Assembly: GCA_016926985.1 (NCBI GenBank)
Contig: JAFGNO010000093.1
Coordinates: forward strand, 2,933 to 66,932
Source of the DNA: Anaerolineae bacterium
GTDB taxonomy: Bacteria; Chloroflexota; Anaerolineae; Aggregatilineales; UBA3940
Reading direction: 5' to 3'
Length of the DNA: 64,000 nt
Shown here one piece after another: positions 6,905 through 38,700 of this stretch (positions within the stretch are counted from its first letter, which is position 1; every line of letters starts with the position of its first letter). The notes beneath the pieces are model-generated. The model saw only the letters and a list, made by a program, of their open reading frames with translations. It had not been told where the DNA came from and ran no database searches. A program made the position numbers and the translations under genes.

Positions 6905-6922
6905 TTCCTCATCCTTTCGCGC

Positions 6923-6960
6923 AGTGAGGCTGCTTCTGAGAGCAGCCTCACTTTTGTATT
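6923..6960 (+). terminator. stem-loop plus T-tract (rightward terminator or radC leader structure)
   Basis: AGTGAGGCTGC-ttctgaga-GCAGCCTCACT followed by TTTTGTATT. Confidence 0.4.
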
Positions 6961-7030
6961 GAAAAGCCGGAAGGCACCCACCAGGCCCGAACAGAACCGT
7001 TTCACGCGCCAGAAGCCTGCTTCCCATCCC

Positions 7031-9305: not shown

Positions 9306-9497
9306 ATGCTCAAGGAACAGGAACGCGCGGAACTGCACCGCACCATCTGGCAGATTGCCAACGACCTTCGCGGCAGCGTGGACGGCTGGGATTTCAAGCA
9401 GTATGTGCTGGGCATGCTGTTCTACCGCTTCATCAGCGAAAACCTCACCAGCTACATCAACGAGGACGAACGGCGCAGCGGCAGCAGGGATTTCGAC
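9306..9497 (+). pseudogene. hsdM: Type I R-M methyltransferase HsdM, N-terminal fragment only
   Basis: LHRTIWQIANDLRGSVDGWDFKQYVLGMLFYRFISENLTSYINEDE... is the HsdM N-domain signature. Homology-like sequence stops after ...SRDFD, and composition switches to AT-rich at about 9498. Confidence 0.75.
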
Positions 9498-9672
9498 AGG
9501 AAAATTGAGTTATTTCTATCCGTCAGGTAAGGATCCACGATCACGCTGACAAGGTTAGGAAATTTACAAAACGACTAACAATACCATTTTAGGTAATTAA
9601 ATTCCGACTTTACTAGCGGAGTAAAAAACATTTGAATAATATTACAGTTATCTCCAAACAATCGAGTTGCCA

Positions 9673-13187: not shown

Positions 13188-14067
13188 TATTATTCTGCAC
13201 TATTAGAATATATTGGTGGTGAATATTAGGAACATATGCATAGGGATAACCATAAGGAAAAACTCGCTTATGGCGTTGATAGAGTATCGTGATCCCTTTT
13301 AGCTCAAACCCTCGACTTTCTAATTGCATCGCTAAATCAGCATGAAACATGTAATACTTCGATTTATGACGGAAATCGCTTACTATGACGGCCATATACT
13401 TTTCTGGTTTTAGAACACGAATAGTGTCACCAAGAATTGCCGATAAATTTCTTAAGAATTCCTGATAATCTTCAATATTTCCTAAATCTCTTTCATCATT
13501 ACTATATCTGGTGTCCAATCCATTTGCTATGCGTTCTTGTCTTACTTTATGATCTTCCTTATGAAGAATGTTCCAGTAAGGCGGACTTGTAACTACAAAA
13601 TCGACAGTATTTTCCTCTACGGTATCCAACAAATCCCTTGCATCGCCAACGTAAATTTCCTGTTGATACTGAGAGGGGAACATTGGGGCAATTTCATTAC
13701 TTAATCTTTCCTTGGCTAACTCTGCATAATGTGGATTTAATTCAAAACCAATCCCACGCCGATTATTTATCGCACATGCCTTTAATGTTGAGCCTACCCC
13801 GACAAAGGGGTCAAGAACTAATTGTCCCTCCTTGGTAAAGAATTTAATTAATCGACCGACATCAGTAAACGAAAAAGGGGCAGGATGTTGTTTTTCAATT
13901 TTGGTATCTGGATGCTTTGCGCCTAACCCCTTTTGGTTCCATACAGAAATTGTTTCAACTATCCATTCTTTTGAAGGCAGGTCATTAAGCTTGTTTCGGG
14001 GATCAACTCCAGGCGATGGATCCTCAAAAGCGCTTTCTTGCTGATCGTGATTCTCAATTACTTCCAT
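13171..14067 (-). CDS. DNA methyltransferase, N4/N6 family (SPPY type, motif I before motif IV)
   Basis: QHPAPF, LDPFVGVGST (motif I), VVTSPPYWN (motif IV). Confidence 0.88.
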   Translation of the reverse strand: MEVIENHDQQESAFEDPSPGVDPRNKLNDLPSKEWIVETISVWNQKGLGAKHPDTKIEKQHPAPFSFTDVGRLIKFFTKEGQLVLDPFVGVGSTLKACAINNRRGIGFELNPHYAELAKERLSNEIAPMFPSQYQQEIYVGDARDLLDTVEENTVDFVVTSPPYWNILHKEDHKVRQERIANGLDTRYSNDERDLGNIEDYQEFLRNLSAILGDTIRVLKPEKYMAVIVSDFRHKSKYYMFHADLAMQLESRGFELKGITILYQRHKRVFPYGYPYAYVPNIHHQYILIVQNNNEKNQ

Positions 14068-14281
14068 AATTTTCCAGAACCTCCAGGAGTTTATCCAACT
14101 CCCGCTTTTGATATAATCGATAGTTATTCAGCGGATGCCTGTATGAATTCAATTTCCCAGACTTATCCCAATTTCGAAGTGTAGACGAAGAGACACCTAA
14201 GTATTTAGCAGCTTCACTCACAGTTAGATATTCATTAAATTTTTTAATTCGCTGAGGCATGACACTGAACCGTAAGATCAT
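14054..14281 (-). CDS. MerR/excisionase-type HTH protein (possible R-M controller)
   Basis: LTVSEAAKYLGVSSSTLRNWDKSGKL. Overlaps the MTase start by 14 nt. Alternative start at 14260. Confidence 0.65.
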   Translation of the reverse strand: MILRFSVMPQRIKKFNEYLTVSEAAKYLGVSSSTLRNWDKSGKLNSYRHPLNNYRLYQKRELDKLLEVLENYGSN

Positions 14282-14743
14282 CTATGTCGTGTTAACATTA
14301 TTAAGCATTGTCAATCAATACTATAGGTTGTTAAACCTTTTTTGTCAATTATTCCATTTTCACAACCTCAACATACAGTTTTATTTACTTGAAAACAAGT
14401 TCCTAATCCTTATTCCACAATATTGGAAATATTAAAGCCACAATAATCTCCTGCCAAAAAACTCCAAACCACTGATTGCCCTTATACTTCTTACCATTAC
14501 CTCCCCACATATTGCATAATCCGGCCAAGATCGACAACCGATTCAATATATGAATTAATCTAATTTTCATACCATCAGTTGCCAAACTCATCTAAGCCAT
14601 ATCCTTTTATCAAAACATAATTCCTTCCATTTCTACAGTTGACATATTACTAACTCACCTACGAATTTCAGAAAAGTGTGATATGATTATTTGTGAACAT
14701 ATGTTCAGAACAATTCCCATACAGAAAGGAACAAAAAACCATC

Positions 14744-15103
14744 ATGTACGAGTTAGTTAAGGAACCACCAGAGCATGATTTTGGAGGAATTATTCTTACG
14801 GGAAGGGAACAATTAGTCCTGTACATTATCTGCTCCTCAAAACCCCAATATCCAACATACCGCGAAATACTTAAGCGCCTAAATCTCATAGTGCCATCCC
14901 GAGATGGAGGGAAAACAAAATATTCATCAACTCAACAGGTGGTTAGAGTTATTGATAAACTTCGTCTTAAGGGGCTTTTGGTTAATCCTGAGATCGAAAG
15001 GGAGCTGTTGAACACAGCCAGGAATATCATACCGACCAATTTAGGTGAAGAGCTTGCACCTCAAATTGAGGCAATATTACGGACCTTGCCAGCCCCGCTT
15101 TAG
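14744..15103 (+). CDS. hypothetical winged-helix-like protein
   Basis: 119 aa from ATG 14744 (ORF track starts at GTG 14693). YREILKRLNL...VVRVIDKLRLKGLL suggests wHTH. Confidence 0.4.
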   Translation: MYELVKEPPEHDFGGIILTGREQLVLYIICSSKPQYPTYREILKRLNLIVPSRDGGKTKYSSTQQVVRVIDKLRLKGLLVNPEIERELLNTARNIIPTNLGEELAPQIEAILRTLPAPL

Positions 15104-15221
15104 AACTGAAATAAGTCTTCACATACACTATCTGTTGCTATCAAGTAATTATCGCGATTACCAGCATCTAGCTTAGCTATGAAAAACCGAATTCAATTGT
15201 CGTAAGCAGCATAATCAAATG

Positions 15222-15254
15222 AAAAATCACCCCAAACCCAAGGGGTGATTTTTT
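15222..15254. terminator. bidirectional rho-independent terminator at the island boundary
   Basis: AAAAATCACCCC-aaacccaa-GGGGTGATTTTT with extra T. A-run and T-run flank a 12-bp stem. Confidence 0.7.
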
Positions 15255-15323
15255 CGTCACACCCCTCTATACTGCATCTCAGAATGTGGTTATGCGTAGA
15301 CCATATCTCCATACCAGAAGGTT

Positions 15324-15341
15324 CTATTCGACATCGAAAAC
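15324..15341. repeat. 18-bp palindrome family copy 3
   Basis: CTATTCGACATCGAAAAC. Its right flank CTCAC is shared with copy 13. Confidence 0.8.
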
Positions 15342-15468
15342 TCACACCCCACGCGCCCCTTCTATCCAATGGTCACCACAATAGTAAAAACCGACCGATT
15401 ATCCACCTGCATACCATGCCTTTTCTTCCATCGCTTGCGATCGCGCCGGTCCGATTTGTCCCCATCCC

Positions 15469-15663
15469 TCACCTCACCCTGTCAATGATAGCCTTCACCA
15501 CGCCACAAAGCACCGGAAGCAGAAACGCAGCCAACCAGATCCATTTCGCCCTGTCCAGGTTTTCTTTCGAAAAGAACACATATATCTCCGGATCGGTCTC
15601 CACAGTCAGGTCATCCATCATCGTCCAGCCTTCTTCCCCCCAGTCATCCCAGTCATCCCCCAT
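15469..15663 (-). CDS. small membrane protein
   Basis: 64 aa. Acidic N-terminus (MGDDWDDWGEEGW). C-terminal TM WIWLAAFLLPVLCGVV. Overlaps the upstream gene by 11 nt. Confidence 0.5.
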   Translation of the reverse strand: MGDDWDDWGEEGWTMMDDLTVETDPEIYVFFSKENLDRAKWIWLAAFLLPVLCGVVKAIIDRVR

Positions 15664-16018
15664 GCGCGTCCTCCGGTTTGGTGTGTTTGATCGAGAAGGT
15701 CATGCAGCCGAGCGGCTTCCCGTCCTCCCCACGCACCATACGCCCAGGACTGATGAGGTCCTCCCTGTCCGACGCATCCATCGTCATCTTCGATACGATA
15801 TACAGGGTCTCCGGCGCAGGGTCCGGCAGATTGATCACATCCCCATAGATCGACCGCACCAGCGGTACCAGCGTTTGTCCTACCGTCAGCTTGCCCACAG
15901 ATACATCCATCTGATCCACCCTGGCGACCACGCCGGTTGGTGCAAATGTCCGCACGATTTCGCCGTCTGACGATACAACCGTAATTTCATGGGGTGTCAG
16001 ATTGATCATTTTTATCAT
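15653..16018 (-). CDS. hypothetical protein
   Basis: 121 aa from MIKMINLTPHEITVV. GGGAGA RBS 6 nt upstream. GC-rich, backbone-like composition. Confidence 0.55.
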   Translation of the reverse strand: MIKMINLTPHEITVVSSDGEIVRTFAPTGVVARVDQMDVSVGKLTVGQTLVPLVRSIYGDVINLPDPAPETLYIVSKMTMDASDREDLISPGRMVRGEDGKPLGCMTFSIKHTKPEDAHGG

Positions 16019-16388
16019 TGGGTTTCTCCCTGATATCAGTTTATGGCTGAACAGCCAACTGCAAAAATTGGGTACTATTCTTTTCATGTAGCACCTTTAC
16101 AGTGAAAAGGTTCAAAATGGTAGACCTCATTTCAATAGGGCGTCTATCGTAGAAAAAATAATCCGCACAGATTTTGGATAGTTAAGAGGAGAAAGTCACG
16201 GCAGCGCTTGCCAAAGCAGCACCTGCCCGTATACAACAAGAAACATGGATGAGCTGGATAAGCAGGGTGATATTGTGAATCCACACCGCAATTCGGGTTC
16301 TAAATCCCCTGATGAAACACTGTTGGATGGGAATAGGCAGCCGATACTATAGGCGTAATCTTATCGAAAATGAAGTTGTCAGTCTCAT

Positions 16389-17669
16389 TTATTCCTGAGT
16401 TACATTACCATCTTCAGAAACCCATAGAAAGCTAAAATTGGCAGCTATTTTGAACCATTGAATCTCCTGCTTCAATCTGTGATAAGTAGGGAAGTCGGGG
16501 AGAGCTACAAAGAGGACCGCTCTACTGTTTTCCTGACGATATCGTATCATGTCATACACTGCAGCCTTAAACCAGTGTCGTGCTTGGGGAGCTAACCTGG
16601 TTCTGACAGTTCCTTTTGGGTAACCCTTCACGGTCACCCAGGCGTTTTGCTCATCAAACACTGCTTCTATATCTTTTCCTCTTTGTCGTGATCTGGTATC
16701 GGCTACTGACCGGATGGTGTATTCATTCAAGACCAGATACTCGACGATGCGAGACTGGATATTACCTTCCCAGAACCACGGTTCTTTTTCAGAATCGCAT
16801 GAATAATTGGCCGTCTCAATTTTCGTTGTATCTCCGATCCAAAAATTAAGAATTTTTCCCTCTCTCTTTTCGCGCTTAACTAATCCTTCTTTAGCTAGAT
16901 CACGACAGATTGAATTTGCTTGCTGTCGAAAGTTAAACCCCAGGTTTAAGGCAAGTTGATCATCATCAAGTCCACCTGAATGGGATTGGAGATGCTCAAT
17001 TACTCGCTCTCGTTGTTTCATCATCAGCTCCTTATCTACAGATTCGGTTGTGATTTTTCCGTTCTCATCTATCCACTTGAAGCAAACGAAGGGTATGTTA
17101 AGAAAGGCTCTTCTCAATAATGAATACCTGCGCCACGCTTCGCAATCAGGTAATGCAATAAAACCAACAGGAGATGAGTGAGAGAGAAAAGAATTGTTAT
17201 ATAAGTCGGAGATGCAATCGAATATTTCAACTACTTCAAACATACTATCAATCTGACATCCATGCTTTTCATTCGATGAATCTAGGTTATCCACCCTAAA
17301 CCCACGGTTTAGTTTACAGCCAACCACAAAGACTTCAAAATAAGGTATTCTTGAAGAACCAACAATCATACGGTATATTGGAAAACTGGCAGGTTGCCAA
17401 AAATCAGTTACCTGGTATCCGTTTTCCAAGAAAGAGAGCCTTAGTCTATTACGCAAACCTCCGACAGAATACCATAGGGGATTATGCAGATCCCCACTCC
17501 AATAGTACCTGATTCCAGAACTGTGAACCTCATGATGAATGTACTCTGGGTCTAATTTTTCAATATACATCCTCGCAGCCACTGAGGATATATTGAATTC
17601 CTCAGCAATTTGATCTGCATCAAATCCGCCATATATATTCTGTATGCGATTTTTAATTTTTTCTAACAT
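16389..17669 (-). CDS. two-wHTH protein with C-terminal PD-(D/E)xK-like nuclease domain
   Basis: 426 aa, AT-rich. DADQIAEEFNISSVAARMYIEKL and DDDQLALNLGF..ICRDLAKEGLVKRE (wHTH). C-terminal RQRGKDIEAVFDEQNAWVTVKGYP (D.E...K). Confidence 0.5.
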   Translation of the reverse strand: MLEKIKNRIQNIYGGFDADQIAEEFNISSVAARMYIEKLDPEYIHHEVHSSGIRYYWSGDLHNPLWYSVGGLRNRLRLSFLENGYQVTDFWQPASFPIYRMIVGSSRIPYFEVFVVGCKLNRGFRVDNLDSSNEKHGCQIDSMFEVVEIFDCISDLYNNSFLSHSSPVGFIALPDCEAWRRYSLLRRAFLNIPFVCFKWIDENGKITTESVDKELMMKQRERVIEHLQSHSGGLDDDQLALNLGFNFRQQANSICRDLAKEGLVKREKREGKILNFWIGDTTKIETANYSCDSEKEPWFWEGNIQSRIVEYLVLNEYTIRSVADTRSRQRGKDIEAVFDEQNAWVTVKGYPKGTVRTRLAPQARHWFKAAVYDMIRYRQENSRAVLFVALPDFPTYHRLKQEIQWFKIAANFSFLWVSEDGNVTQE

Positions 17670-18035
17670 GAGAGAATACCTTCAATACTAAATATTCTTT
17701 CAAATCAAAATCCCACGTCGACTAGAATTTAGCATGCCTCAATTTTTCCTAATAAAACTAACGGTTGTAGCTGAACCCAAAAAACGTAACTTGGTATTGT
17801 TCCCTCCAAATGTATCACTTTTTATTAATCCGTCCTATAAAAACGGAGGTTTGAAGGGATTTTTTCAGCGTAACCCAAATCTCAAATAACGGGCTTAAAC
17901 ACGAAAAGGGTCGTAAGGCAGACTTCCTTTATCCATTTCTTGATGAGGGTTCCATTCAGAAAGCTCTACCACACTTCTCGCTGTTTCTGCAGAAAAGCTC
18001 ATGGTTACGGATACCTGGAAACATGGTTCACTTCC

Positions 18036-27112: not shown

Positions 27113-28615
27113 ATGCCCATTCTGACCGAAGCTGACCAGACCCTGCTGCCGCTGGCACTCAGAGAAAACAAAGGCTGTGTCACTGCGTCGGAATGGTATT
27201 TCGGGCAGACGCCGATGCCGCTGCAGTATGCCTTTCACCAGATCCTGGTCCCGAACGTCACCTACCTGGCCGGCATCGCCGCCGGAAAAACCACCGCCGT
27301 GGCTCAATCCTACACCCTGGACTGCATCAGCATCCCGCATTTCAAGGCCCTCAACACCTCCGTTACCTCCACGCAGGCGGAGCTGGTGTTTGAAATGATC
27401 AACGGCTGGATTGAGACCAACGACCACCTTGCCCACCTGGTAGAAGACATCAGCCTGCGCCCCTACCCGGTCATCCTCTTCAAGAACTATTCCGAATACC
27501 ACTTCCGTACCGCTGGAAAGGATGCACGCTTTATACGCGGCCAGGAATATGACCGCATCAATTACGACGAAGCCGGACTGGATTACGCCGGGGTGTCTCT
27601 GCAGACCCTGCGCGGCCGGTTGCGCGGCAAGCGCCCGGACGGGAACACCCGCATGGCACGCATGGACGTGACCACCTCCCCGACCGACGCCCCCTGGCTG
27701 GAGCAGCGCTTCAACCGCGGCGTCAAAGACCATCCCACGGCTGCCCTGGAGATGTACCGGTCCATCCGGGCGACCATCTATGACAACACGCACCTCACAC
27801 CGCAGCAGGTTGCCCTGATGGAGGCGGACTATACCGATGAGATGATCGACGTGGAGCTGCGCGGATTATTCCCCAAATACGGCCTGACCATGTTCCCGCG
27901 GGAGCATATCGATGCCTGTACCGACATGGAACTGAACGACCTCATGACCGAAGCCATCCGGCCAGAGACCGGCAAACCCCAATCCGGCTACCGGTACATC
28001 GAACACCCGCGCTACGGGATCACGCATTTCGAACTCCCGGCGGAAAAACAGGGACGTTATATCCTGGCCGGTGATCCCGGCATGGGGGACCCGCCCAAAC
28101 GTAACGCACCGGTTGTATTGGTGGCCCGGATCGACCGGGAACCGTGGGACATTGTGTATTTTGACTGGGTGTATGGGCGCGGGTCGTATAAGCCCTTCCT
28201 GAATTCCTTCAAGTATGCTATCGAAAAGTACCAGCCTGTGCTCCGGGGACTGGATGCCACCGGCACGCAGCGGGCCATTGAGGAACTGGCCTTTGAAAGT
28301 GAAGGCATCGTCGTGGAGGGGTTGAATTTTCAACGGGACAAGGACGCCATGATCAATGCGCTGTCTCTATGCATCACCGGGCACCGCTTCCGCTGGCCGG
28401 TGATCCGTGGCCTGATCAATCAGATGCGCACCTACAAACGGGAAGAAGACAAGAAGCTGGCCCAGGATATTGTGATGACCCTGGCCGAGATTGCGTTCCT
28501 GGCCCGCTGGCTCCCGGAGGAGATGGGGGCAGACGTTGCCTACACCCGCGCCGGTGCCTTTCGTAACCGCAAGCAGCGCACCACCATGGGCCGGCGGGGA
28601 AGGACGAGGAGGTAG
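27113..28615 (+). CDS. terminase large subunit
   Basis: 500 aa. Walker A LAGIAAGKTTAV. Acidic motifs YDRINYDEAG. Lies between HNH and (across the island) portal. Confidence 0.8.
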   Translation: MPILTEADQTLLPLALRENKGCVTASEWYFGQTPMPLQYAFHQILVPNVTYLAGIAAGKTTAVAQSYTLDCISIPHFKALNTSVTSTQAELVFEMINGWIETNDHLAHLVEDISLRPYPVILFKNYSEYHFRTAGKDARFIRGQEYDRINYDEAGLDYAGVSLQTLRGRLRGKRPDGNTRMARMDVTTSPTDAPWLEQRFNRGVKDHPTAALEMYRSIRATIYDNTHLTPQQVALMEADYTDEMIDVELRGLFPKYGLTMFPREHIDACTDMELNDLMTEAIRPETGKPQSGYRYIEHPRYGITHFELPAEKQGRYILAGDPGMGDPPKRNAPVVLVARIDREPWDIVYFDWVYGRGSYKPFLNSFKYAIEKYQPVLRGLDATGTQRAIEELAFESEGIVVEGLNFQRDKDAMINALSLCITGHRFRWPVIRGLINQMRTYKREEDKKLAQDIVMTLAEIAFLARWLPEEMGADVAYTRAGAFRNRKQRTTMGRRGRTRR

Positions 28616-28617
28616 GG

Positions 28618-28881
28618 ATGCCGGTGTACACCTATGTCTGCCCGCAGTGCAGCCGGGTTTTCGATGTCGAAAAGTCGATGACGGCGCCCCACCCTGTTCA
28701 CTGTGAGGACTGCGGGTATCAAGGTCCGTTGATGCGACGCTTCAATCAACCTTCAATCAAGTACAGATGTTCAGGCTTCTACACCACAGACAAGAAACTG
28801 GACACGTTCGTTCCTGGCTATGACGGGCCGGATGAAGTGACGTTGATGGAGATGGGGGAGGATGTGCCTGGGGAGGGGTGA
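28618..28881 (+). CDS. FmdB-family zinc-ribbon protein
   Basis: MPVYTYVCPQCSRVFDVEK...HCEDCG. Contains palindrome copy 10. Confidence 0.8.
   Translation: MPVYTYVCPQCSRVFDVEKSMTAPHPVHCEDCGYQGPLMRRFNQPSIKYRCSGFYTTDKKLDTFVPGYDGPDEVTLMEMGEDVPGEG
28657..28674. repeat. 18-bp palindrome family copy 10
   Basis: GTTTTCGATGTCGAAAAG (inside the FmdB gene). Confidence 0.9.
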
Positions 28882-28884
28882 GGA
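28813..28884 (+). repeat. 72-bp direct repeat, copy 1 (3' end of the FmdB gene)
   Basis: CCTGGCTATGACGGGCCGGATGAAGTGACGTTGATGGAGATGGGGGAGGATGTGCCTGGGGAGGGGTGAGGA. 69/72 identical to 30068-30139. Confidence 0.95.
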
Positions 28885-29050
28885 GACGCTGAAACGCGAT
28901 AATAATCCCTAAATGAAAAAATTCTTCAGCTGATTTATGAACTGGATCACTAAATCGTTGTTCAATGGAGCGAACCATGCTAGGATCGAGTGTGTCTTCA
29001 CGGCAGTTCTACCGCGATGGCTAATAATTACGGTGTCTAGTTTACTAATT

Positions 29051-29818
29051 ATGGATCACATACCTAATAACCAAAGAGTAACCCAAAGAAACTTTCTACA
29101 ACTCTTTTTTGGATCTATTTGGGGTATTATCCTATCGTCATGTAATTTTCGTATAAGCACTCTAACACCTACTATTCAAAACACCAAGACACCCGCTCCT
29201 GAACCATCCAGCCCCCCCTCCCCCAGGAATACCTCAACGCCTACCAAGACCCCATCTCAAACCCCTACACACACTACAATACCTACTCAGGATTACTGCA
29301 AAACCGAGGTTGTTAATGATCTGAATCGGCTTGTCTCCACATTATCAGATCAAAACATCTTGTATCAAAACGAAAAAGGAGATCATCCATATTCTGATGG
29401 AACACTATACATAAATGTTGGGGATTGGGAAGTAGAGATCAATAATCAAATATTGGAATATATCGAGCAGTGCGATTTAGAGTTAGCCCTTCTTGAAGAA
29501 ATCGTAAATGAGTTCAGGCTCTTTGAAATTACCAATCGTGATGGTGACTTGATTCTCAACACCCGATCCGCTCCCATATCGGGTCCAAACCAGGGAGAAG
29601 GTGAATATTCGATCGCTTTCACGGGAGGAATTGGCAGGGTATTTTATCTGGCTGTCTTAGTTCAAAGAGAATGGATACCTGTTGAGAATTCTGAGATCGC
29701 TTTTGGATTTCTGATCGCAAAACCAACCAACAACCCTGACGAAGGCGATGCTGGGGGAAGTGGCAGCACAAGCGACACTAACAATACTAGTAGTTGGAGT
29801 TCCACGAGCGATCAGTAG
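29051..29818 (+). CDS. lipoprotein with Pro/Thr/Ser-rich linker
   Basis: From MDHIPNNQRVTQRNFLQLFFGSIWGIILSSC (lipobox LSSC). The ORF is open from 28937. Confidence 0.55.
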   Translation: MDHIPNNQRVTQRNFLQLFFGSIWGIILSSCNFRISTLTPTIQNTKTPAPEPSSPPSPRNTSTPTKTPSQTPTHTTIPTQDYCKTEVVNDLNRLVSTLSDQNILYQNEKGDHPYSDGTLYINVGDWEVEINNQILEYIEQCDLELALLEEIVNEFRLFEITNRDGDLILNTRSAPISGPNQGEGEYSIAFTGGIGRVFYLAVLVQREWIPVENSEIAFGFLIAKPTNNPDEGDAGGSGSTSDTNNTSSWSSTSDQ

Positions 29819-29911
29819 TGGACCCATATAGTTGGACACTTATTGAGGCATCCTTATGGGGATGCATTATACTGAGTAATAAGCGAAAATTCAGAATACC
29901 GTGGATTTTAA

Positions 29912-29992
29912 GCATACCTCCTGTTGCCTAATCATGAGCGTCCCCATCAGGCATTGGATTATAAAACACTGGCAGAAATTTATTTCTGTGTT
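29912..29992 (+). pseudogene. remnant of a DDE transposase/integrase C-terminus
   Basis: LPNHERPHQALDYKTLAEIYF matches the conserved YN..RPH.aLgy.TP.e tail of rve-domain transposases. Only about 27 codons are present. Confidence 0.6.
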
Positions 29993-30067
29993 GACGGGGG
30001 ATCTAATGTTGGGTTCCCCCTAAACCTTTATGGAGCACATAAAGTCCAGCTAGTTCGGGTTGCCTCA

Positions 30068-30139
30068 CCTGGCTATAACGGGCCGGATGAAGTGACGCTT
30101 ATGGAGATGGGGGAGGATGTGCCTGGGGAGGGGTGAGGA
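30068..30139 (+). repeat. 72-bp direct repeat, copy 2 (orphan FmdB 3' end)
   Basis: Encodes ...PGYNGPDEVTLMEMGEDVPGEG-stop with no zinc-ribbon part upstream. Confidence 0.95.
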
Positions 30140-30223
30140 AACTGGGAGGCCAAGGTTTCCAGCGGCAATAGATTATGCCTATCGTAACCATCCGAATTGC
30201 CTTGCTGCATTAGTCTTTACCGT

Positions 30224-31798
30224 CTAATATCTTGCATTTGTAATTCTGGATAATGCTTTGTAGAAATCTTCCTCATCAATCATCAAGTTGGTAGTATCAA
30301 TTTCTTCAATTTGTAGCAACGCAGAATTAAGATCAAAGCTTCTGCGAATGCAATTATATGCGCCTTCACGAGCAACGAAGGCGATATCGGCACCAGTAAG
30401 GCCAAGTAATTGATTGCTTAATTCCTCAATATGGATATTCGGTGAAAGAGGCATTCCTGATATGCACTTAGAAAAGATATCAAAGCAGCCCTTCTTGGTA
30501 GGTTTCTTTACCTCGATATGGTAATCAAACCTCCCTGGTCTCACCAATGCTTGGTCTAGTAACTCTGGACGATTGGTTGAGCCCAATACTCGAATATTCC
30601 CATAATTCTCAAGACCGTCCATTAATGATAGCAATTGATTAACAAAACGCGAATCTAATCTAAGGTTTTCTTCACCTGATCGTTGTTGAGCAATGGAATC
30701 AATTTCATCAAAGAATATTATTGCTGGTTCCAATTCTTGAGCCTCTTCAAAAATCATACGAAGATTTTTCTCAGATTGCCCATGATACTTATTGAGTAGT
30801 TCAGGGCCTTTCACACCGATAAAGTGTGCATTAATTTCATTTGCAATTGCTTTGGCAATCATAGTTTTGCCACACCCTGGAGGACCATAAAGCAATATCC
30901 CTTTATGAGGGATAATTTTCATGTATTCAAACAGGTTTGGCTGCTTCAACGGTAATTCAATTACTTCTCTAATTGTCCCGATGATCTCATCTAAACCACC
31001 GATATCCTCAAATGATACCTCTGGAATATCCCGTTTCCTCTTTTCGCGCAGCTCTGTTTCAAATGAAATTCTTCCAAATGAAATTTGTTGTGATCCATTG
31101 TCCACTTCTTCCTTTTTCGGTTGAATTCCTGTAATTTTCTCTTCAATTGTGTAGCCATCGTCAATTTCTTGTCGCTTCAGCTCAAATTGCTCATCGGTAT
31201 TCGGATCGATTTCATTCGGCAACTTAGACAAGATTATGTCTATATTATCTACATCAAAATACGGGCAAAATGAGAGTAACTTTGATCCTGCTTCATCAAC
31301 TAGGATTTCCTTAATCTTCTCTTTATCGATTTGCCATTTCTCGTTGCTGAAACTGCCAAAGTCGTACCAAATCCTTCCATTGTACTGACGATAACCCCAA
31401 GAATTCGTGGGATGATGATATCTATTTATGGACACTAGATGTCTACATTGCCAGCCTTCCTTAATATCTTGATCAATGTAACAATACTTTGCTCCTAAGT
31501 AGTTCATCCCAGATGCACAGGACATAGTATTTTTTAAGTTCCGTATTTGATCTGACGAGGCAGTATTTCCATTTATGAGAATTTCCGTTCCTTTCCAATT
31601 TTGGATCATTTCATAGATAATTTGGAATATTTGATAATGCTCGACGAATTGGGTGCTATCAAATTCAATTGAATTTGTCTTTGAGCTTTCAGTAAAAGTG
31701 TATGTATCAAATTTCTTACACATCCTAATAACTTTTGGATAATTTTGTGAACTTGATTTTGAAAACCTAAGTGTAACTAGAAAATCTGATTTATCCAT
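30224..31798 (-). CDS. classical-clade AAA+ ATPase (CDC48/FtsH-like module) with an unknown ~260-aa N-terminal domain
   Basis: [20 protein letters not shown] (Walker A), [12 protein letters not shown] (Walker B), [20 protein letters not shown] (SRH / Arg fingers). Confidence 0.88.
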
Positions 31799-32096
31799 TT
31801 TCAGAACCTCGGAACCTAAGTAAGTTAAATAACTTTAGCTGAGACGCACGAGCTCATCAACTCAAGTTTTTCAGATTGACACTTTAGCTCAATCAACTGT
31901 CAACCGCTGCAGATCCTCAACTACAATCTGAAAACATCATAGAGACGAGACTAATTGTATAGGTGCCGGAATTATTGCCAAACTCAGTTTCAGCAACAGG
32001 AATTCGACCCAATTTTTTAACCATCTCCTAAGTAACTCGTGCGGTCTGATCCTGATAGCCTTCTACCTAACTATAGGCAACGTTAGAGGAGCCTTT

Positions 32097-33065
32097 TCAA
32101 ATATTTAATAAAGGTTTTTCAAAAAACCATAACGGACTCGATGGGACTTCATAATCTGAAATGTCCTCATGAAGAAACCAGGTAAGCAGCTCTCTTAATG
32201 CCTCCATCGCGTTCTTAGTAGATGGATAGTCATTCTCCGCATTATGAGCCAGATCATTTCTACTCTTTCTTGCCTTGTGAAGTCTATCTGCCAAATCCTC
32301 AGAGAAAATACCCGCCGTAAGTAATATTTCTGTCTGAATAGCAGCTGTGTAAGTTCTAGTATCCTTTAATCGATTTAACCGGTTCTTATTTTCAATTTCA
32401 TCACGATACTTCCTCCATTCATGAGCAATAAGTTGTTCACATGCAATCCAAGAATTAAGGAGGGAAGTGTCAAGATGATATCTTGAGAACGATGAATAAG
32501 CAGTAACGATGAACGCAGGCAAGCTTAAAGAAACGGATTCGAGTTTGGTTGCAAGATCTAAATTAGCGACTTTATAAATGATCTCAATACTGGAATTTAA
32601 GGAGGTCCACATAAGTTCGTCTTCTTCATTTTTGCGACTTGAATCAAATGGCGCTAGATTATAGCTAGGCTTGAAAGACACTGAGGGGTAGAGGATAGAA
32701 ACATGACCATTATGTATTTCGCCAACACAAAGGCGAGATGGAGTAGCAGCCTCAGAAATCAATCCGTTTAGTGTCAACTCACAGATTAGACGATTCAGTA
32801 GTCTGCAGGAGTTATGTTCAAAATCGAGTTGCAAGTTCAGATAATCTAAATTTAGATGTCCCAAATCATTCTCCCTTCGACCTAATAGATCATCGGGGAT
32901 AGGAAGGAATAATCCTCCCATTGCTGTGATGTGGATTCGATAATCGGAGTTAACTGCAACTGTTCTAATAATTTTGTGAGCGCTTTTTGGGTTTTCAAGA
33001 TTGACTTCAGTTAAAAATGTGAGTGGATCGAGATAAGTTCCGATGAAATATTTCGCTTGGTTCAC
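32097..33065 (-). CDS. HEPN-domain protein (Abi-like), unknown N-terminal domain
   Basis: C-terminal helical region with LHKARKSRNDLAHN (Rx4H HEPN motif). Confidence 0.55.
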   Translation of the reverse strand: MNQAKYFIGTYLDPLTFLTEVNLENPKSAHKIIRTVAVNSDYRIHITAMGGLFLPIPDDLLGRRENDLGHLNLDYLNLQLDFEHNSCRLLNRLICELTLNGLISEAATPSRLCVGEIHNGHVSILYPSVSFKPSYNLAPFDSSRKNEEDELMWTSLNSSIEIIYKVANLDLATKLESVSLSLPAFIVTAYSSFSRYHLDTSLLNSWIACEQLIAHEWRKYRDEIENKNRLNRLKDTRTYTAAIQTEILLTAGIFSEDLADRLHKARKSRNDLAHNAENDYPSTKNAMEALRELLTWFLHEDISDYEVPSSPLWFFEKPLLNI

Positions 33066-33258
33066 GCTGTCACTCCGATTTACAAACTCATAAATATAAC
33101 CTAACAGTTATAGTTACTGGCATGCCTGGTACTTGCTGAAAAGATACAAGATAACGATCTCATAATTGATATTGAAACCTGAAACCCCAATAGTCAAAGC
33201 ATCGTCGAGACAATTCCTTGGTATGTTGTTATGCGAAAGTTGATTGTTCACCCAGCCA

Positions 33259-33417
33259 TTATTTTGGCTTGCTTGGCCTAGGTTTCGGTTTTTCGGGCGG
33301 TGGGGCTGGGACCCGTTGACCTTTTATTGCGTCATTGCCACTACCGATTTTTTTATCAGGAGTACCGGTTTTCTTTTCCTCCAGAAATATTGCATTTGGT
33401 TTCCTTCTGAGTAACAT
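33259..33417 (-). CDS. 52-aa Lys/Pro-rich peptide (candidate)
   Basis: TAGGAG RBS overlapping the upstream stop. MLLRRKPNAIFLEEKKTGTPDKK...PPPEKPKPRPSKPK. Confidence 0.35.
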   Translation of the reverse strand: MLLRRKPNAIFLEEKKTGTPDKKIGSGNDAIKGQRVPAPPPEKPKPRPSKPK

Positions 33418-33425
33418 TTTTACTC

Positions 33426-33827
33426 CTAAAGGTTTGAGTGTGTAAAAATTGCAGCGAAAATTACGCCCACTACAAATAAAATACCGCCTAATGCATTCAA
33501 AATGCCTGTGAGAATATCCTGCCATCCACCAGGATGATTATCATAAATTTTTTCTATATCAACTTGCTTAATCGCCTTCCTCAATGCCCAATTGCTGGAG
33601 TAGAAGGATAATAAAACAATAGAAATGCTTATAGCCCATAAAATCCAAGCCACTAAGATGTAATTGGGATTGACTACTGAATTGCTGCCAATAATGTCTT
33701 TTATAAATGCAAAGGTAATTCCTAACGCGCCACCCGATAACGCGATAAGGTTTTTATCGTAATCATCCTGAGCTTTTTGCTCTGCAGTCATCAAGTTTGT
33801 CCTATATTTTTCGAGTAAATCAGACAT
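33426..33827 (-). CDS. three-TM membrane protein
   Basis: 133 aa from MSDLLEKYRT (AGAGGA RBS). TM segments LIALSGGALGITFAFI, ILVAWILWAISISIVLLSFY, ILNALGGILFVVGVIFAAIF. Confidence 0.6.
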   Translation of the reverse strand: MSDLLEKYRTNLMTAEQKAQDDYDKNLIALSGGALGITFAFIKDIIGSNSVVNPNYILVAWILWAISISIVLLSFYSSNWALRKAIKQVDIEKIYDNHPGGWQDILTGILNALGGILFVVGVIFAAIFTHSNL

Positions 33828-34199
33828 TTTTTTCCTCTTGCTCGATTGGATTATCAAAAAAATCCTCCCCTTTTTAGGGAGTCTATAGCACACGAACACT
33901 TCGTCAAGATTTTAATAACCTTCGCCAAGGCAACAGAAACTGCGAGTAGAACGAGGTCCCTCAAGCTTACCTTCACTAATATGGAATCAAATTTGTCTTC
34001 CTGAATTATTCCGGAATTCAACTCATAAAGTAGCCGTTAAGCGATCAGCCCCTTCGAACTAAAGCGCTGTTATTCGTCCCAAATCCTGCTTTCTAAATAA
34101 AGAGATAGTCTCCCACCAGACAAATCGTTGCATTTCCTCGACCGATTCCAGAGTGAAGTTAGCCGGAGATGAGACGACCCAAACAAAGATCTGTGGTGA

Positions 34200-34850
34200 T
34201 TAAACAAATGCTTTAAGAAAGCTTTCAAAGCTCTGAATATGTCCGGTCTGGTCCAAACGAATTTGAAGCTGTTCTAAATATTTGGAATGTAATAAAGCTT
34301 TGGGTTGGCTTTTTGAATAAGTCAAATTCCTATATTTGTCATTCAATGCAGCAATTAGATATTTCTTCGCAAACTGAGCTCTTGACAGATCTTCTATTGC
34401 CGGTAATTGTTCAGGGTCTTGACTTCCTACATTGAAAAATCTTTGATAGGTTCTTAATCGAGAAGATTGGGAGTTTCGACGAATTATCTTTCTATTGCCA
34501 AGAGCCCAAGTCTCAAAGCAAAAATGCTGAACCACAATCTTAACTGGTACTCGACAAGGAAATTGGACTAAGTGGGACTGGATTTCCTCGTATTTTTCAT
34601 CTCTCGACATTTCTTCAGAGTCTATTGATATCACAAGCCGGTCAAAATTTGTGTGAGAATTTACATCAGAAATAGCATTCTCAATAACAGTAAAATAACG
34701 TGGGTATCCACCACCCGTTATGAGGTAGCAATCATCATTCTTAATCTCATCGATATAGTTCTTCAGAGTTAGGCGCGGATTAATTAAAGGGATCCAATGT
34801 TTATAAACCTTCTGCTCAGTTACCCCCTCAACCACAACATAGATATTCAT
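34200..34850 (-). CDS. TOPRIM-like protein (DUF4276/RloB-like)
   Basis: MNIYVVVEGVTEQKVY (conserved EG.TE start). RLVISIDSEE (acidic DxD-like). ATGA coupling to the ATPase gene. Confidence 0.55.
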   Translation of the reverse strand: MNIYVVVEGVTEQKVYKHWIPLINPRLTLKNYIDEIKNDDCYLITGGGYPRYFTVIENAISDVNSHTNFDRLVISIDSEEMSRDEKYEEIQSHLVQFPCRVPVKIVVQHFCFETWALGNRKIIRRNSQSSRLRTYQRFFNVGSQDPEQLPAIEDLSRAQFAKKYLIAALNDKYRNLTYSKSQPKALLHSKYLEQLQIRLDQTGHIQSFESFLKAFV

Positions 34851-35977
34851 TCAACACCGTCAGTATAGAAAGGATCATTAATAAGCTGAATAAACGCTTC
34901 TTGCTTAGATTTTCCAAACCTACCCTCAAGCTCTTCACCATACAATATTTGAATATCGGTACCTTTCCTATGGAATAAGTACCAGTTCCGAGAAGGAATG
35001 TCATTAATAATGTAAGGATGATGACTCGTGACAAAGAATTGAATTTGTTTCTCAAGACGAAGAATGAAATCAGGAAAAAAATCAATAGCACTAATTCCAA
35101 GTGAATTCTCATACTCATCGATGATATAGATGGAATCATCCGGAGCAGAATAAATATCAGTAAGAATTAGGAGGATTTTTTGCATACCAGAGGACATATC
35201 AGGGAGTGGAATCCAGTCCTGTTGATTTCGTTCACGAATACAAAAAACCGGTACATTTAAAGGGAAAGCTACATTAGGCGAAACTTGAGCTAAATCTCGA
35301 AAGCTGAAATCACTAACAAATGAGAATGCGATTTTAAATTGCTCTTCAATTTCGGTGAAGAGATCTGGGAAATACTTATCCATCAAATACAATGTAGTAT
35401 TCAATCCAAACCCGGTCTTGTATAAAGCGCGTAGAGTTGGTTCGTTGTCAAACTTTTGATGAAGCTCTAAACTGACAGCCTCTAAATGAGATAATCTCGC
35501 CAAATCATCATGGAAGAATCGACGTCTCCTAATATTTTCGAATCCATTGAATATTGGCTGAACAACTTCCTCCTCCCTTAATAACGAAATTGCAGTCTTT
35601 CTAGCGGGAAGTTTTGGAAGATCAGTTGAACTGAACCTAAATTTTCCTGGCCTTCGATCTACTAAAACTTGACTTTCCTCATTCCCCAATATCTCAAGTT
35701 TCTCAAAAATTATCCTAGAATCCTCATCGGGGTTTACATCATCTGTTTCAATAACCCACTTGTAGGTTATGCCTGATTGCAGAAAAGTAATATCCCACTT
35801 TCCTTGCACAAACTTGTCTGCAGCGACAAAGGAACCAAGATTAAATAAAGTATTCAATAACCGAGTCTTCCCTGTTGCAGAATCTCCAACTAACAAATTC
35901 ATCTTTTGGAATTCAACGGGAGTAAAAGACCAATGTGTATGACCCTTACCATGACATTCATATCGTAGAATTTTCAT
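34847..35977 (-). CDS. ABC-type (AAA_21/OLD-like) ATPase
   Basis: LLVGDSATGKTRLL (Walker A), MSSGMQKILL (signature), IYIIDEYENSLG (Walker B), FVTSHHP (H-loop). Confidence 0.8.
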   Translation of the reverse strand: MKILRYECHGKGHTHWSFTPVEFQKMNLLVGDSATGKTRLLNTLFNLGSFVAADKFVQGKWDITFLQSGITYKWVIETDDVNPDEDSRIIFEKLEILGNEESQVLVDRRPGKFRFSSTDLPKLPARKTAISLLREEEVVQPIFNGFENIRRRRFFHDDLARLSHLEAVSLELHQKFDNEPTLRALYKTGFGLNTTLYLMDKYFPDLFTEIEEQFKIAFSFVSDFSFRDLAQVSPNVAFPLNVPVFCIRERNQQDWIPLPDMSSGMQKILLILTDIYSAPDDSIYIIDEYENSLGISAIDFFPDFILRLEKQIQFFVTSHHPYIINDIPSRNWYLFHRKGTDIQILYGEELEGRFGKSKQEAFIQLINDPFYTDGVE

Positions 35978-36124
35978 TGCATCCTACCTTTCTAATCCCT
36001 AGGAAAAATCTGTCCAAAATAATAAGTAATTAATAAAGTCAACTTTTTTATGAGGGTCCGTAAAAATTATCTACTCTACCGAATATTGTTCTATTTCGAC
36101 TAACAAGATTGATTATTGGTTTCT

Positions 36125-36724
36125 TCAAGCAAAGATATCTGTCAACACTGACCTATTAGAATCAGTATCACCGAATACCTGTAAACCTCTATTAAGTAGT
36201 TGAGTAGTTGCATCAGAGTTCGAATACTGTTTCCTCAAAACGTTAAACATTCGCTTAAACCGTTGATTCAATTTTGGCGTGACGATTGAAAGCATAGAAA
36301 CAAGGCGGAGATCCTTCGTATATCCGTATTTAAGGTCAACAATGTTTTCTATAAAGTAGCAAAGTTCCCATTCTTCAAGTACATCAGGAGAAGGGATATG
36401 GGAAATATCGTAACTATCGATGCCTCTGTCCAAAAGCCAAAGGTTTCTATACTTTTCGAACGCTTCATCTGAAGGTATCAATGGACCCAACTCTATTAAT
36501 GTAATAGCCAAGTGAATAAGCATGTCCATTATACGATGATTAAGCCTCAAGGTTTTCCCCTCTAAATTAAGTAAAGCTGCTTTTGTTGCCAATTCGATAA
36601 CGTGAGCATGAAGGAAGGGTAAAGATCCGTTATTAAAATCCCTTTTCTTCAACAAGATGATGTCTAGCATAAAATCATCAGCTAGGCGGCCAAAATTACC
36701 AGCAACCACATCCATACTTTCCAT
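36125..36724 (-). CDS. hypothetical helical protein (HEPN-like N-terminal helices?)
   Basis: 199 aa. LHAHVIELATKAALLNLEGKTLRLNHRIMDML resembles the HEPN helix pair. No Rx4H motif seen. Confidence 0.5.
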   Translation of the reverse strand: MESMDVVAGNFGRLADDFMLDIILLKKRDFNNGSLPFLHAHVIELATKAALLNLEGKTLRLNHRIMDMLIHLAITLIELGPLIPSDEAFEKYRNLWLLDRGIDSYDISHIPSPDVLEEWELCYFIENIVDLKYGYTKDLRLVSMLSIVTPKLNQRFKRMFNVLRKQYSNSDATTQLLNRGLQVFGDTDSNRSVLTDIFA

Positions 36725-37038
36725 TGCACATCCCTAATAATGCCGAGAAAAATCAAATTCAATTTCGATACTCTGCTGATTTTATTCAGTTTGACGCATC
36801 TGGTAGTAATTTCAGAAATTATGCAGCGATTAATTCCACCTCATATTTCTCTCTGAAAGTGATTATCTTTCAGAACACATCAAATTTAGCACATCTTCCT
36901 CCATTTGCCACTTCTTCTTGAGAGCCATATCTTCTTATCAGCGATCAGAAATGGTGTTTTCATAAACTACTCTTCACATTGCAAATACCGTTCATATCCC
37001 ATATATCCATACTGTTGTATTATTTATAATCCATACGG

Positions 37039-37067
37039 TTGACCACTATTACATTCTGTGATACAAT
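37039..37067 (+). promoter_or_regulatory. promoter of the portal/structural operon (TTGACC-17-TACAAT with TGn)
   Basis: TTGACCACTATTACATTCTGTGATACAAT. Confidence 0.55.
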
Positions 37068-37176
37068 CCCAATTAAGTAGAACCACTTCTGCACAAACAG
37101 AAGCAGTTCCAAACTGCCTTTCCCCCATTTAGGCTCTACCCCCTTTTGAGTTGCAAATTCATAGTAAGGATGACCG

Positions 37177-38700
37177 ATGCTGACCTATCCCGATTATTCG
37201 GATCTCAGCATGTCGCCGTTCAGCGATGGCCTGCAGCTCCTGTGGGACCAGGCGTTCACCGAGCGGCAGAAATACCACCATTACTTCTCCGGGGAAGTGT
37301 TCCATGAACGCGTCCAGGTGGAGGACGAGGACACCCAGGGTGATCCCCCCCTGCTCTACCCCGTGGGGATGAACCTGGTTCGGACCCTGTGTGTCTCCCA
37401 ATCGGAAGCCCTGTTTGGTGAATGGGAAGATATGGTCATGCGCTTCCGGGCCCGCCAGGACGTTGCCGAAGACACCTCCACCGAAAAAGCAATCGAATGG
37501 GCGCATCAAATCCTGACCGATAACCACTTCGAGACCCTCGGCTATGAATTGGCCCTCGATCGTGAAGTGTACAAGGGCTGTGCGGTCAAGATCAGCTTTG
37601 ATCTCACCCTGCCATCAAAAATCCGGCTGTCCCGCCTGCCACTGGATTACTTCTACCCGATCTGGGACCCCGACAATCCGGACCGGCTGCTGGAAGCGTA
37701 TCTGGCCGTCCCGATGTCCCTGGAGCAGGCACGAGCCCGCTACGGGGTCAAGATGGAAAACGCCCACGATATCGTTTTCCGCGTGGAGCACTGGACCGAA
37801 ACAACCTACGAAAGCCGCCTCAATGATATCCGGATTGACGAATATTCCGGTCACAACCCCTGGGGTGTTGTCCCAATCGAATACATCCCCCGCATGCGAA
37901 CGGATGACTGGTACGGCGACAGCCTGGCAAAGGAAATCATCACGGTGCAGGATGAGCTCAACATGCGCCTGGCCGACATGGGAGAAGCCGTCAACTACAA
38001 TTCGCACCCGATCCGCTGGGGCCGGGACCTTCCCAAGCAGTTCAACGCCCGCAACTTCCCGGTCGGTGCCTTTGCCTTCTGGAACCTGGGGCGTTCCCTG
38101 CAGGACAAAACCCCTGAAGTCGGTGTGCTTGAAGTCAAGAACCCGGTCCCGAAGGAAGGGCTGGATTACATCAACTTCCTGTATGACTGGACCCGGACCT
38201 CTTCCTTCTCCCCTCCAATCGCCTTTGGGGAGGATGACGGCGGCGGTCAACGCTCCGGGCGGACGTTGCAGATCCGCATGTGGCCCCTGATCCGGGCCAC
38301 CCGCCGCAGCCGGGCCTATTTCGGCGCCGGCATGATCCGCATTCTCCATAAAGCGGCTGCCATCATGCGGCAAAAGAACCTGGGTAATTCCTATGCGACA
38401 CAGCGGGTACTGGAAGGCCGACTGGTGGCACAGTTTGCGGAAATCATGCCGCAGGACGAAGCCGCAATTGTCGACAAGGTTGTACGCCTGCTGACCCTGC
38501 CGGTGCCACCCATGTCGCTGGAAACTGCGACCAAAGAGCTTGGCTATGGCGCCCGTGAAGTGGATCGCATTCGAGCCTATCTCTCAGATGAGCTGTTTCA
38601 GGACTATCTCAACAAGAAGCCGGAAGTGTCCACCCCTGGCGAGGAAACACTGGAACCACAGGATACGAAGGATCGCAAGGCCGACCGGAACCCAGAATGA
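37177..38700 (+). CDS. portal protein
   Basis: 507 aa. First structural gene after TerL (across the island). Size and position fit. No motif verified. Confidence 0.7.
   Translation: MLTYPDYSDLSMSPFSDGLQLLWDQAFTERQKYHHYFSGEVFHERVQVEDEDTQGDPPLLYPVGMNLVRTLCVSQSEALFGEWEDMVMRFRARQDVAEDTSTEKAIEWAHQILTDNHFETLGYELALDREVYKGCAVKISFDLTLPSKIRLSRLPLDYFYPIWDPDNPDRLLEAYLAVPMSLEQARARYGVKMENAHDIVFRVEHWTETTYESRLNDIRIDEYSGHNPWGVVPIEYIPRMRTDDWYGDSLAKEIITVQDELNMRLADMGEAVNYNSHPIRWGRDLPKQFNARNFPVGAFAFWNLGRSLQDKTPEVGVLEVKNPVPKEGLDYINFLYDWTRTSSFSPPIAFGEDDGGGQRSGRTLQIRMWPLIRATRRSRAYFGAGMIRILHKAAAIMRQKNLGNSYATQRVLEGRLVAQFAEIMPQDEAAIVDKVVRLLTLPVPPMSLETATKELGYGAREVDRIRAYLSDELFQDYLNKKPEVSTPGEETLEPQDTKDRKADRNPE

Follow-up and report, generated by a model that had tools for sequence, protein, structure and literature searches.

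A duplicated gene end beside an IS3-family relic: a possible rearrangement joint in the cargo slot of a temperate-looking Anaerolineae phage

An insertion sequence (IS) that lacks a target-site duplication may have recombined with another IS copy, undergone an adjacent deletion or inserted at a rearrangement joint, and ISs of this sort have been seen directly in the middle of duplications (PMC11708052). A gene 3' end is also left in duplicate by insertions with long target duplications, a class defined by empty-site comparison and by the absence of other mobile elements (Nobusato/Furuta/Kobayashi; PMC2853133), and by e14/phage 21 in icd, with its orphan icdC (PMC13626634). Variable cargo slots, in turn, are described from the P2/P4 phage hotspots (PMC9122126). 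Here we analyse a locus that resembles each of these in part. It lies in a 64,000-nucleotide (nt) stretch of DNA, hereafter the window, from an Anaerolineae bacterium (assembly GCA_016926985.1, contig JAFGNO010000093.1, positions 2,933 to 66,932 of the forward strand). The 3' end of an FmdB-type zinc-ribbon gene occurs twice in this window, and its second copy abuts the remains of an IS3-family IS. At roughly even odds (a probability of about 0.5), we read the duplicated gene end as the scar of a rearrangement joint at this IS, within a hypervariable cargo slot of a temperate-looking Anaerolineae phage.

A preliminary description of this DNA had reported a duplication of the zinc-ribbon gene end, with the first copy completing the intact gene and the second standing as an orphan; both points are borne out. 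The direct repeat is 75 nt long (Table 1), and its copies are identical at 71 of 75 positions, or 69 of 72 over the span first described, with an identical core of 39 nt. A 55-nt pattern built from the repeat occurs exactly twice in the window and not once in 100 shuffles, and no third copy of the repeat is present in the window. The duplicated stretch encodes the variable acidic tail of the zinc-ribbon protein, beginning at a PGYD motif that, in the alignment, is common to some relatives. From copy 1 to copy 2, GAC becomes AAC (D to N, within the conserved PGYD motif) and ACGTTG becomes ACGCTT (two silent changes within one Leu codon), such that two of the three coding differences are silent; past the stop codon, copy 1 reads GGAGAC and copy 2 GGAAAC. 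Local alignment with shuffle controls found no similarity beyond chance between the flanks of the two copies. A tandem duplication was rejected because the sequences that follow copy 1 and copy 2 are unrelated. The GC-rich stretch of about 30 nt after copy 2 is probably native backbone sequence from downstream of the zinc-ribbon gene.

Both inner junctions of the repeat were confirmed in an independent (Logan) assembly of run SRR13394437. Contig L019 (1,276 bp) corresponds to window positions 28855–30130 at 100% identity, and contig L020 (8,129 bp) corresponds, by gene coordinates, to positions 30110–38238. In both contigs the break falls exactly 30 nt inside the identical 39-nt core, where a k=31 graph is expected to break if the repeat is genuine. 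No branch interrupts L019 between copy 1 and the variants specific to copy 2, so that it spans the whole insert, relic included; a molecule joining the insert to the orphan gene end therefore exists. The same unbranched path indicates that the relic is single-copy in this run and that the joint is not an IS-mediated misassembly. Thus, the concern raised in the preliminary description that the repeat might be an assembly artefact is not upheld.

To judge from its sequence, the segment at 29814–30067 is an internally deleted IS3-family element. A 27-codon remnant of an rve-type transposase had been noticed at this position, and it proves to be part of a 254-bp relic with both inverted repeats. 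The OrfB remnant matches Pfam rve_3 at E=0.017, over profile positions 54–66 of 67. A phmmer search of 1.84 billion representative proteins with this stub returned mostly junk repetitive matches, the only informative one being P0007 (E=1.2e-4), an rve/rve_3 protein by Pfam. In a tblastn search of plasmids, three of the matches listed fall in annotated IS3-family transposase genes, each of them non-significant (E about 0.1), and most of the other matches listed fall in unannotated sequence. The catalytic DDE region of OrfB is deleted, leaving just the last 27 codons. With orfA and most of orfB gone, 65 nt separate the left inverted repeat from the OrfB remnant. The relic is old and decayed.

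The terminal repeats were compared with reference ends taken from the annotated IS3A and IS150 elements of E. coli K-12 (NC_000913.3). The left inverted repeat agrees with the IS150 left repeat at 19 of 24 positions (binomial P about 4e-8 per comparison) and is the single top scorer among all 127,952 window 24-mers against three reference ends. It lies 230 bp upstream of the right repeat, in the correct inverted orientation. The right repeat, whose register is fixed by the repeat boundary, agrees with the right repeats of IS150 and IS3 at 15 and 14 of 24 positions, respectively (binomial P about 1e-4); the IS3 and IS150 right repeats agree with each other at 14 of 24. Over both strands (128 kb), the layout TG-N5-ACCC-N8-TGGAC has a single exact occurrence, at the right repeat. 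As in IS3-family elements, imperfect inverted repeats lie in inverted orientation around a transposase remnant, and the right one ends CA-3'. In a separate comparison made by eye, the zinc-ribbon stop region TGAGGA(G/A)AC (28879–28887 and 30134–30142) resembles the IS right terminus read inward, TGAGGCAAC, at 8/9 positions in copy 2 and 7/9 in copy 1; this likeness may be due to chance or to an IS target preference.

The position of the relic connects it to the duplication. Its outer right terminus (CA at 30067) directly abuts the first base of copy 2, and this junction lies inside the unbranched contig L019. An IS was therefore once inserted in a zinc-ribbon gene, with 69 coding nt left before the stop, and its insertion point, rather than an attachment site, set the left edge of the orphan copy. 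The flanks of the relic are unrelated, with ...GAGCGATC on the left (ending ...GATC, at the 3' end of an AT-rich lipoprotein-like open reading frame, ORF) and CCTGGCTAT... on the right (starting CCTG...), and no target-site duplication of 3–5 bp surrounds it. Unrelated flanks and a missing target-site duplication indicate that the relic lies at a rearrangement joint and is not a simple insertion. We thus take the missing duplication as a sign of such a joint and not as evidence against IS identity. The preliminary description had also considered whether the orphan might belong to a distinct, longer gene. This was rejected, given that the ORF at 29924–30136 is an accidental fusion, in frame by chance, of the OrfB remnant, the right inverted repeat and the gene tail.

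The joint lies in a region that is a variable cargo slot, or hotspot, as the preliminary description had proposed. Sediment metagenomes, IMG/VR and a single metagenome-assembled genome from Anaerolineae yielded relatives with syntenic terminase large subunits (TerL), all of 51–70% identity. In every relative locus long enough to judge it, the order is HNH, TerL, zinc ribbon, slot and portal, except that no zinc ribbon was detected in locus L005. Slot size varies from 0.4 kb (L001, L005) through 1.5–1.8 kb (L003, L004, L011) to 8.3 kb in this window, and the slots of the relatives have backbone GC and different content. Here, an AT-rich island of 8.3 kb (28888 to about 37150; 38–42% GC, against about 58% in the backbone) fills the slot between the terminase/zinc-ribbon genes and the portal gene. 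The repeats do flank an insert of 1.2 kb, as first described, but this is only the first 1.18 kb of the island and not the whole of the foreign DNA.

We propose that two related phage or prophage genomes would each have carried the same IS. In the first, the lipoprotein cargo and the IS would have come after an intact zinc-ribbon gene. In the second, the IS would have lain in the zinc-ribbon tail, followed by native downstream sequence and a defence-type cargo B, with the end of the zinc-ribbon gene expected to read ...PGYNGPDEVTLMEMGEDVPGEG-TGAGGAAACTGGGAGG ahead of an AAA ATPase gene. Either the IS copies would have recombined, or a cointegrate formed by the IS would have been resolved by packaging of one genome length, in both cases joining the left part of the first parent to the right part of the second. 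The product would have an intact zinc-ribbon gene, cargo A stacked on cargo B, and the displaced 72-bp gene end as an orphan between them. The IS would later have shrunk by about 1 kb through internal deletion, unless the IS crossover was itself unequal. In this scheme, the divergence of about 5% between the copies would mirror the divergence between the two parents, and the right edge of homology, 6 nt past the stop codon, would simply be the start of the first cargo block. The preliminary description had offered recombination between related phages with different cargo, with the gene end acting as a recombination or attachment site; the former remains the most economical reading, whereas the latter is not supported, as discussed below.

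Several observations weigh against this proposal. No parental-type genome was found, and the two-genome step is one that we infer. The coding differences between the copies number only three, too few for the excess of silent ones to reach significance (about p=0.16, by our own estimate). The left inverted repeat begins AG rather than TG, and it agrees with the right repeat at only 13 of 24 positions (local alignment p=0.06), each being closer to IS150/IS3 than to the other; from their sequences, the two repeats could each derive from a separate IS3-family element. The proposal does not account for the left junction of cargo A (28887/28888), 6 nt past the stop codon. Finally, the k=31 graph alone is also compatible with the other pairing of paths through the 39-nt core, although the submitted contig presumably resolved this pairing through longer k-mers or reads.

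The alternative that survives best is an insertion in situ, which we consider unlikely, if still a serious contender. A single ancestor with the zinc-ribbon gene, the native sequence and cargo B would have gained one 1.18-kb fragment comprising the lipoprotein ORF and the IS. The right-repeat end, cut by the transposase, would have joined 75 nt upstream of the other end, stagger fill-in would have duplicated those 75 nt, and copy 2 would then have drifted. The structure is exactly that of target, insert and target, and insertions of defence genes with target duplications of 46–423 bp, often over a gene 3' end, are documented (PMC2853133), as is the occurrence of an IS at the centre of duplications without target-site duplications (PMC11708052). 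Moreover, the sole non-silent change (D to N in PGYD) is found in the orphan, as drift predicts, and the old, decayed state of the relic is in line with this history. However, the scheme needs a non-standard, one-ended joining, and, because the left inverted repeat lies inside the insert, no IS end forms the insert's left boundary. It also has to accommodate copies that are 5% diverged around a 293-codon ORF that is still open, and there is no empty-site relative for comparison. A classical transposon target duplication was rejected, since 75 bp is more than such duplications span and no IS end bounds the insert on its left.

A further explanation, distinctly less probable, is that illegitimate recombination between phages made a longer second copy of the zinc-ribbon gene, in which an IS3-family element then landed, and that all DNA from the lipoprotein ORF up to the IS was lost in an IS-adjacent deletion. 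ISs without target-site duplications often arise through adjacent deletions, e.g., for IS150 in the long-term evolution experiment, and such a deletion would account for the unrelated flanks of the relic. This history nonetheless requires one event more than recombination between IS copies of two genomes and leaves the duplication itself unexplained, and a tblastx search revealed no other backbone remnant in the island. The choice among the two-genome, in-situ and trimmed-duplication models rests on parsimony.

The independent assembly bears on the proposition, which we hold to be very improbable, that the structure is a chimera of two co-existing strain variants joined through the 39-nt core, with no single molecule containing both copies. 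Two paths enter the core and two leave it in the k=31 graph. The public-assembly collection (which includes Logan) has no record of the exact TerL protein, and L020, having spanned the junction between island and portal gene, ends inside the portal gene at window position 38238; both suggest backbone heterogeneity or low coverage. Yet the junction of the right repeat and copy 2, with the copy-2 variants, lies within one unbranched contig, and the 39-nt core is shorter than a read and, presumably, than the larger k values of metagenome assemblers. As an observation apart, the AT-rich cargo assembles into long unbranched contigs, unlike the backbone; the latter may be polymorphic in the sample, meaning that related phages co-exist there. 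Exact-protein look-ups matched only two contigs, both from run SRR13394437, and a literature search for this run found nothing.

Site-specific or Campbell-type integration, in which a small circle bearing the gene end would have entered the zinc-ribbon 3' end as an attachment site in the manner of e14 at icd, can be all but dismissed: the insert is flanked by direct repeats of which the upstream copy keeps the gene intact, as in icd/icdC (PMC13626634), the window encodes a Xer-like tyrosine recombinase (399–1280) and a 1,255-bp circle is compatible with the k=31 graph, but there is no integrase in or beside the segment (no recombinase domain in ten tested genes between 27113 and 36724, the window's only recombinase being 27 kb away), the repeat lacks dyad symmetry or an unusual fold (z -0.3 and -0.2), the orphan's left edge falls exactly at an IS terminus, which an attachment site does not predict, the repeats bound 1.18 kb of an 8.3-kb foreign island with the 7-kb cargo B outside them, and the 72 bp are absent from IMG/VR. 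Neither the 1.2-kb segment nor cargo B nor the island as a whole showed terminal inverted repeats or extended homology in local alignments with shuffle controls. The role of attachment site given to the gene end in the preliminary description is accordingly not sustained.

Table 1. Features of the cargo slot and its flanking genes, in window coordinates (aa, amino acids).
Feature	Position	Strand	Remarks
Terminase large subunit (TerL)	27113–28615	+	Pfam Terminase_6N, E=1.2e-10; conserved left anchor of the slot
FmdB-type zinc-ribbon gene, intact	28618–28881	+	87 aa; Pfam Zn_ribbon_8, NCBIfam TIGR02605
Repeat copy 1	28813–28887	+	Last 22 zinc-ribbon codons, stop codon and 6 nt past it
Cargo block A	28888–29813	+	42% GC; contains the lipoprotein-like ORF
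Lipoprotein-like ORF	28937–29818	+	293 codons; probable start 29051, lipobox LSSC
IS3-family relic	29814–30067	+	254 bp; left inverted repeat, leader, internal deletion, OrfB C-terminal remnant, right inverted repeat
Candidate left inverted repeat	29814–29837	+	AGTAGTGGACCCATATAGTTGGAC; terminal T reads A
OrfB (rve_3) C-terminal remnant	29903–29983	+	27 codons with an internal stop: GF, stop, AYLLLPNHERPHQALDYKTLAEIY
Right inverted repeat	30044–30067	-	+ strand ...GTCCAGCTAGTTCGGGTTGCCTCA; outer CA abuts copy 2
Repeat copy 2	30068–30142	+	Orphan gene end; GC-rich islet within the AT-rich island
GC-rich stretch after copy 2	30143–30172	+	About 30 nt; absent after copy 1; from sequence and GC profile
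Cargo block B	30173–37150	-	38% GC; six minus-strand genes of at least 150 aa
Classic AAA ATPase, IetA-like	30224–31798	-	Pfam, PADLOC, PHROGs and NCBIfam searches
Cargo B gene	32097–33065	-	At least 150 aa
Cargo B gene	33426–33899	-	At least 150 aa
DUF4276 gene	34200–34850	-	Match below Pfam cut-off
AAA_21 gene	34847–35977	-	Overlaps the DUF4276 gene; AbiLi/AriA-like
Cargo B gene	36125–36724	-	At least 150 aa
Portal protein	37177–38700	+	Pfam SPP1_portal; syntenic in relatives; conserved right anchor of the slot

The zinc-ribbon protein scores 34.4 bits against Pfam Zn_ribbon_8, exactly at the cut-off, and 34.8 bits against NCBIfam TIGR02605 (cut-off 31.3); it is identical to nr entry MBN1228875.1 of an Anaerolineae bacterium. 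A short likeness was seen between the TerL C-terminus (…EEMGADV…, 28519–28536) and the zinc-ribbon tail (…MEMGEDV…, 28848–28865 and 30103–30120), with 15 of 18 nt shared, and is probably due to chance. Among the relatives, loci L007–L009 have an extra small zinc-finger gene between the TerL and zinc-ribbon genes. The slots of L003, L004 and L011 contain a conserved small lysine-rich protein, a small protein with a HEVIHA motif and a DNA methyltransferase. No homologues of the relatives' slot genes were found in the slot of this window, and elsewhere in it there are only unrelated methyltransferases in a second AT-rich island (island 1, below).

The two cargo blocks differ in content. The lipoprotein-like ORF of cargo A has no match in Pfam, PHROG, NCBIfam or PADLOC and matches only itself in a database of 5.8 billion proteins. 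Its stop codon (TAG, 29816–29818) falls within the left inverted repeat of the relic, and the ORF is therefore probably truncated too. Cargo B is, from its predicted genes, probably defence-type cargo. The ATPase part of its AAA protein matches IetA at 1e-39 and also CDC48/PAN, while the N-terminal region of about 250 aa has no Pfam family and one weak PHROG match of unknown function. Against the NCBIfam anti-phage ATPase equivalog (listed as IteA), this protein scores 125 bits where the cut-off is 510, and no IetS partner is present. The AAA_21 protein matches AbiLi and AriA at 1e-19 to 1e-18. All cargo B matches to named systems (Iet, PARIS/AbiL-like, HEC-01) are below the curated thresholds. 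The AAA ATPase and the AAA_21 plus DUF4276 pair are thus candidate defence modules that fit no curated system.

Searches of wider collections returned nothing closer than the relatives described above. Scans of IMG/VR, GTDB genomes and JGI metagenomes with TerL and the zinc-ribbon protein recovered only relatives with a TerL identity of at most 70%, and the zinc-ribbon protein, the stub plus orphan and the lipoprotein ORF matched only the window's own proteins in the 5.8-billion-protein database. Megablast against phages and blastn of the segment against plasmids gave no match. IMG/VR contains no relatives of the AAA and lipoprotein proteins, nor does it contain the exact repeat core or either inverted-repeat string. 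In none of the collections searched was there a parental-type, empty-site or full-length-IS sequence, or another copy of the zinc-ribbon protein, the lipoprotein ORF or the relic. The comparison suggested in the preliminary description, with empty-site or alternative-cargo versions in related phages, therefore gave results that were empty or distant (TerL at most 70%). No terminator-like sites, tRNA genes or Rfam families were found, and promoter-like sites were no more numerous than expected by chance.

Other features of the window concern the surrounding genome. An abrupt joint is also seen at 9306–9497, where a GC-rich N-terminal fragment of a type I restriction-modification hsdM gene (about 63 codons; NCBIfam hsdM E=2e-29 over profile positions 1–54 of 515; E=7e-24 to the EcoR124II M protein in PDB) ends exactly at AT-rich island 1. 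The rest of hsdM is absent, indicating that AT-rich DNA replaced backbone sequence there, and this truncation implies that abrupt replacement joints recur in this genome. Island 1 (about 9500–18000, approximately 37% GC) encodes a 4Fe-4S protein (11345–12412), unknown ORFs and, on the minus strand, two N6_N4 DNA methylases (12375–13187 and 13171–14067). It is interrupted by a GC-rich islet at about 15240–16030 that appears to hold backbone-type small genes and a variant of the palindrome described next. The 14-nt palindrome TTTCGACGTCGAAA occurs, with up to one mismatch, at 12 sites in the window (1451, 4440, 18402, 19571, 20088, 20876, 27087, 28659, 39434, 44447, 52007 and 60657) against 0.02 expected; looser variants also occur, e.g., at 15322. 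All 12 sites lie in the GC-rich backbone, one of them between the HNH and TerL genes and one within the zinc-ribbon gene, and the palindrome may be a regulatory, methylation or restriction-related motif. The Xer-like recombinase (293 aa) matches Pfam Phage_integrase at E=1e-35 and resembles XerA/XerC in NCBIfam, below cut-offs. Together with a nearby RadC-like gene (6338–7027), it suggests a temperate element or a prophage edge.

If recombination between IS copies of two genomes did produce this locus, then the joining of two unrelated cargo blocks in a phage hotspot is legible here as a fossil, in which the decayed IS is the joint and the displaced gene end is what the IS interrupted. Legible scars of such joints are rare. 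The locus would indicate that accessory islands of phages can arise by ordinary recombination, IS-driven or illegitimate, without a dedicated cassette-exchange system. It also advises caution, as a long "target duplication" beside a gene end is not necessarily an attachment site. That IS3-family elements are a recurrent engine of cargo-island assembly in phages, routinely stacking modules at this slot, seems to us very doubtful; were it so, the stop region could attract ISs, cointegrates formed by ISs between co-resident phage genomes would be resolved by packaging, and mobilisation of the 1.25-kb unit in trans might still occur. The event itself is of a known kind, a rearrangement scar associated with an IS in a cargo hotspot of a phage; all of its steps are ordinary and no new mechanism is involved.

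Among described systems, the closest are IS3-family ISs of the IS150/IS3 type at joints. Shared features are an rve_3-type OrfB C-terminus, terminal repeats of the form TG...ACCC...TGGAC with a CA-3' outer end, and unrelated flanks without a target-site duplication (PMC11708052). The element described here differs in that 254 bp survive, its left repeat starts AG and no full-length copy is known; its location is also different, a phage cargo slot where it borders a duplicated gene end. With insertions with long target duplications, the locus shares an insert of deviating GC, direct repeats of more than 30 bp over a gene 3' end (here 75 bp at 95% identity), the lack of an integrase and a context of defence genes (PMC2853133). 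Unlike in that class, an IS terminus closes the insert on its right, and no empty site is at hand. As with e14/phage 21 in icd, a gene 3' end is duplicated, with the gene intact upstream, an orphan downstream and mostly conservative differences between them; e14, however, has its own integrase and site-specific excision (PMC13626634), whereas this locus has no associated recombinase and its orphan is bounded by an IS end. Lastly, the P2/P4 hotspots and their morons likewise comprise a variable slot among packaging and head genes with compositionally foreign, defence-like cargo (PMC9122126). The present locus belongs to another phage family and another slot, between zinc ribbon and portal, and its defence function is a predicted one; what further sets it apart is an internal scar that appears to record how two cargo blocks met.

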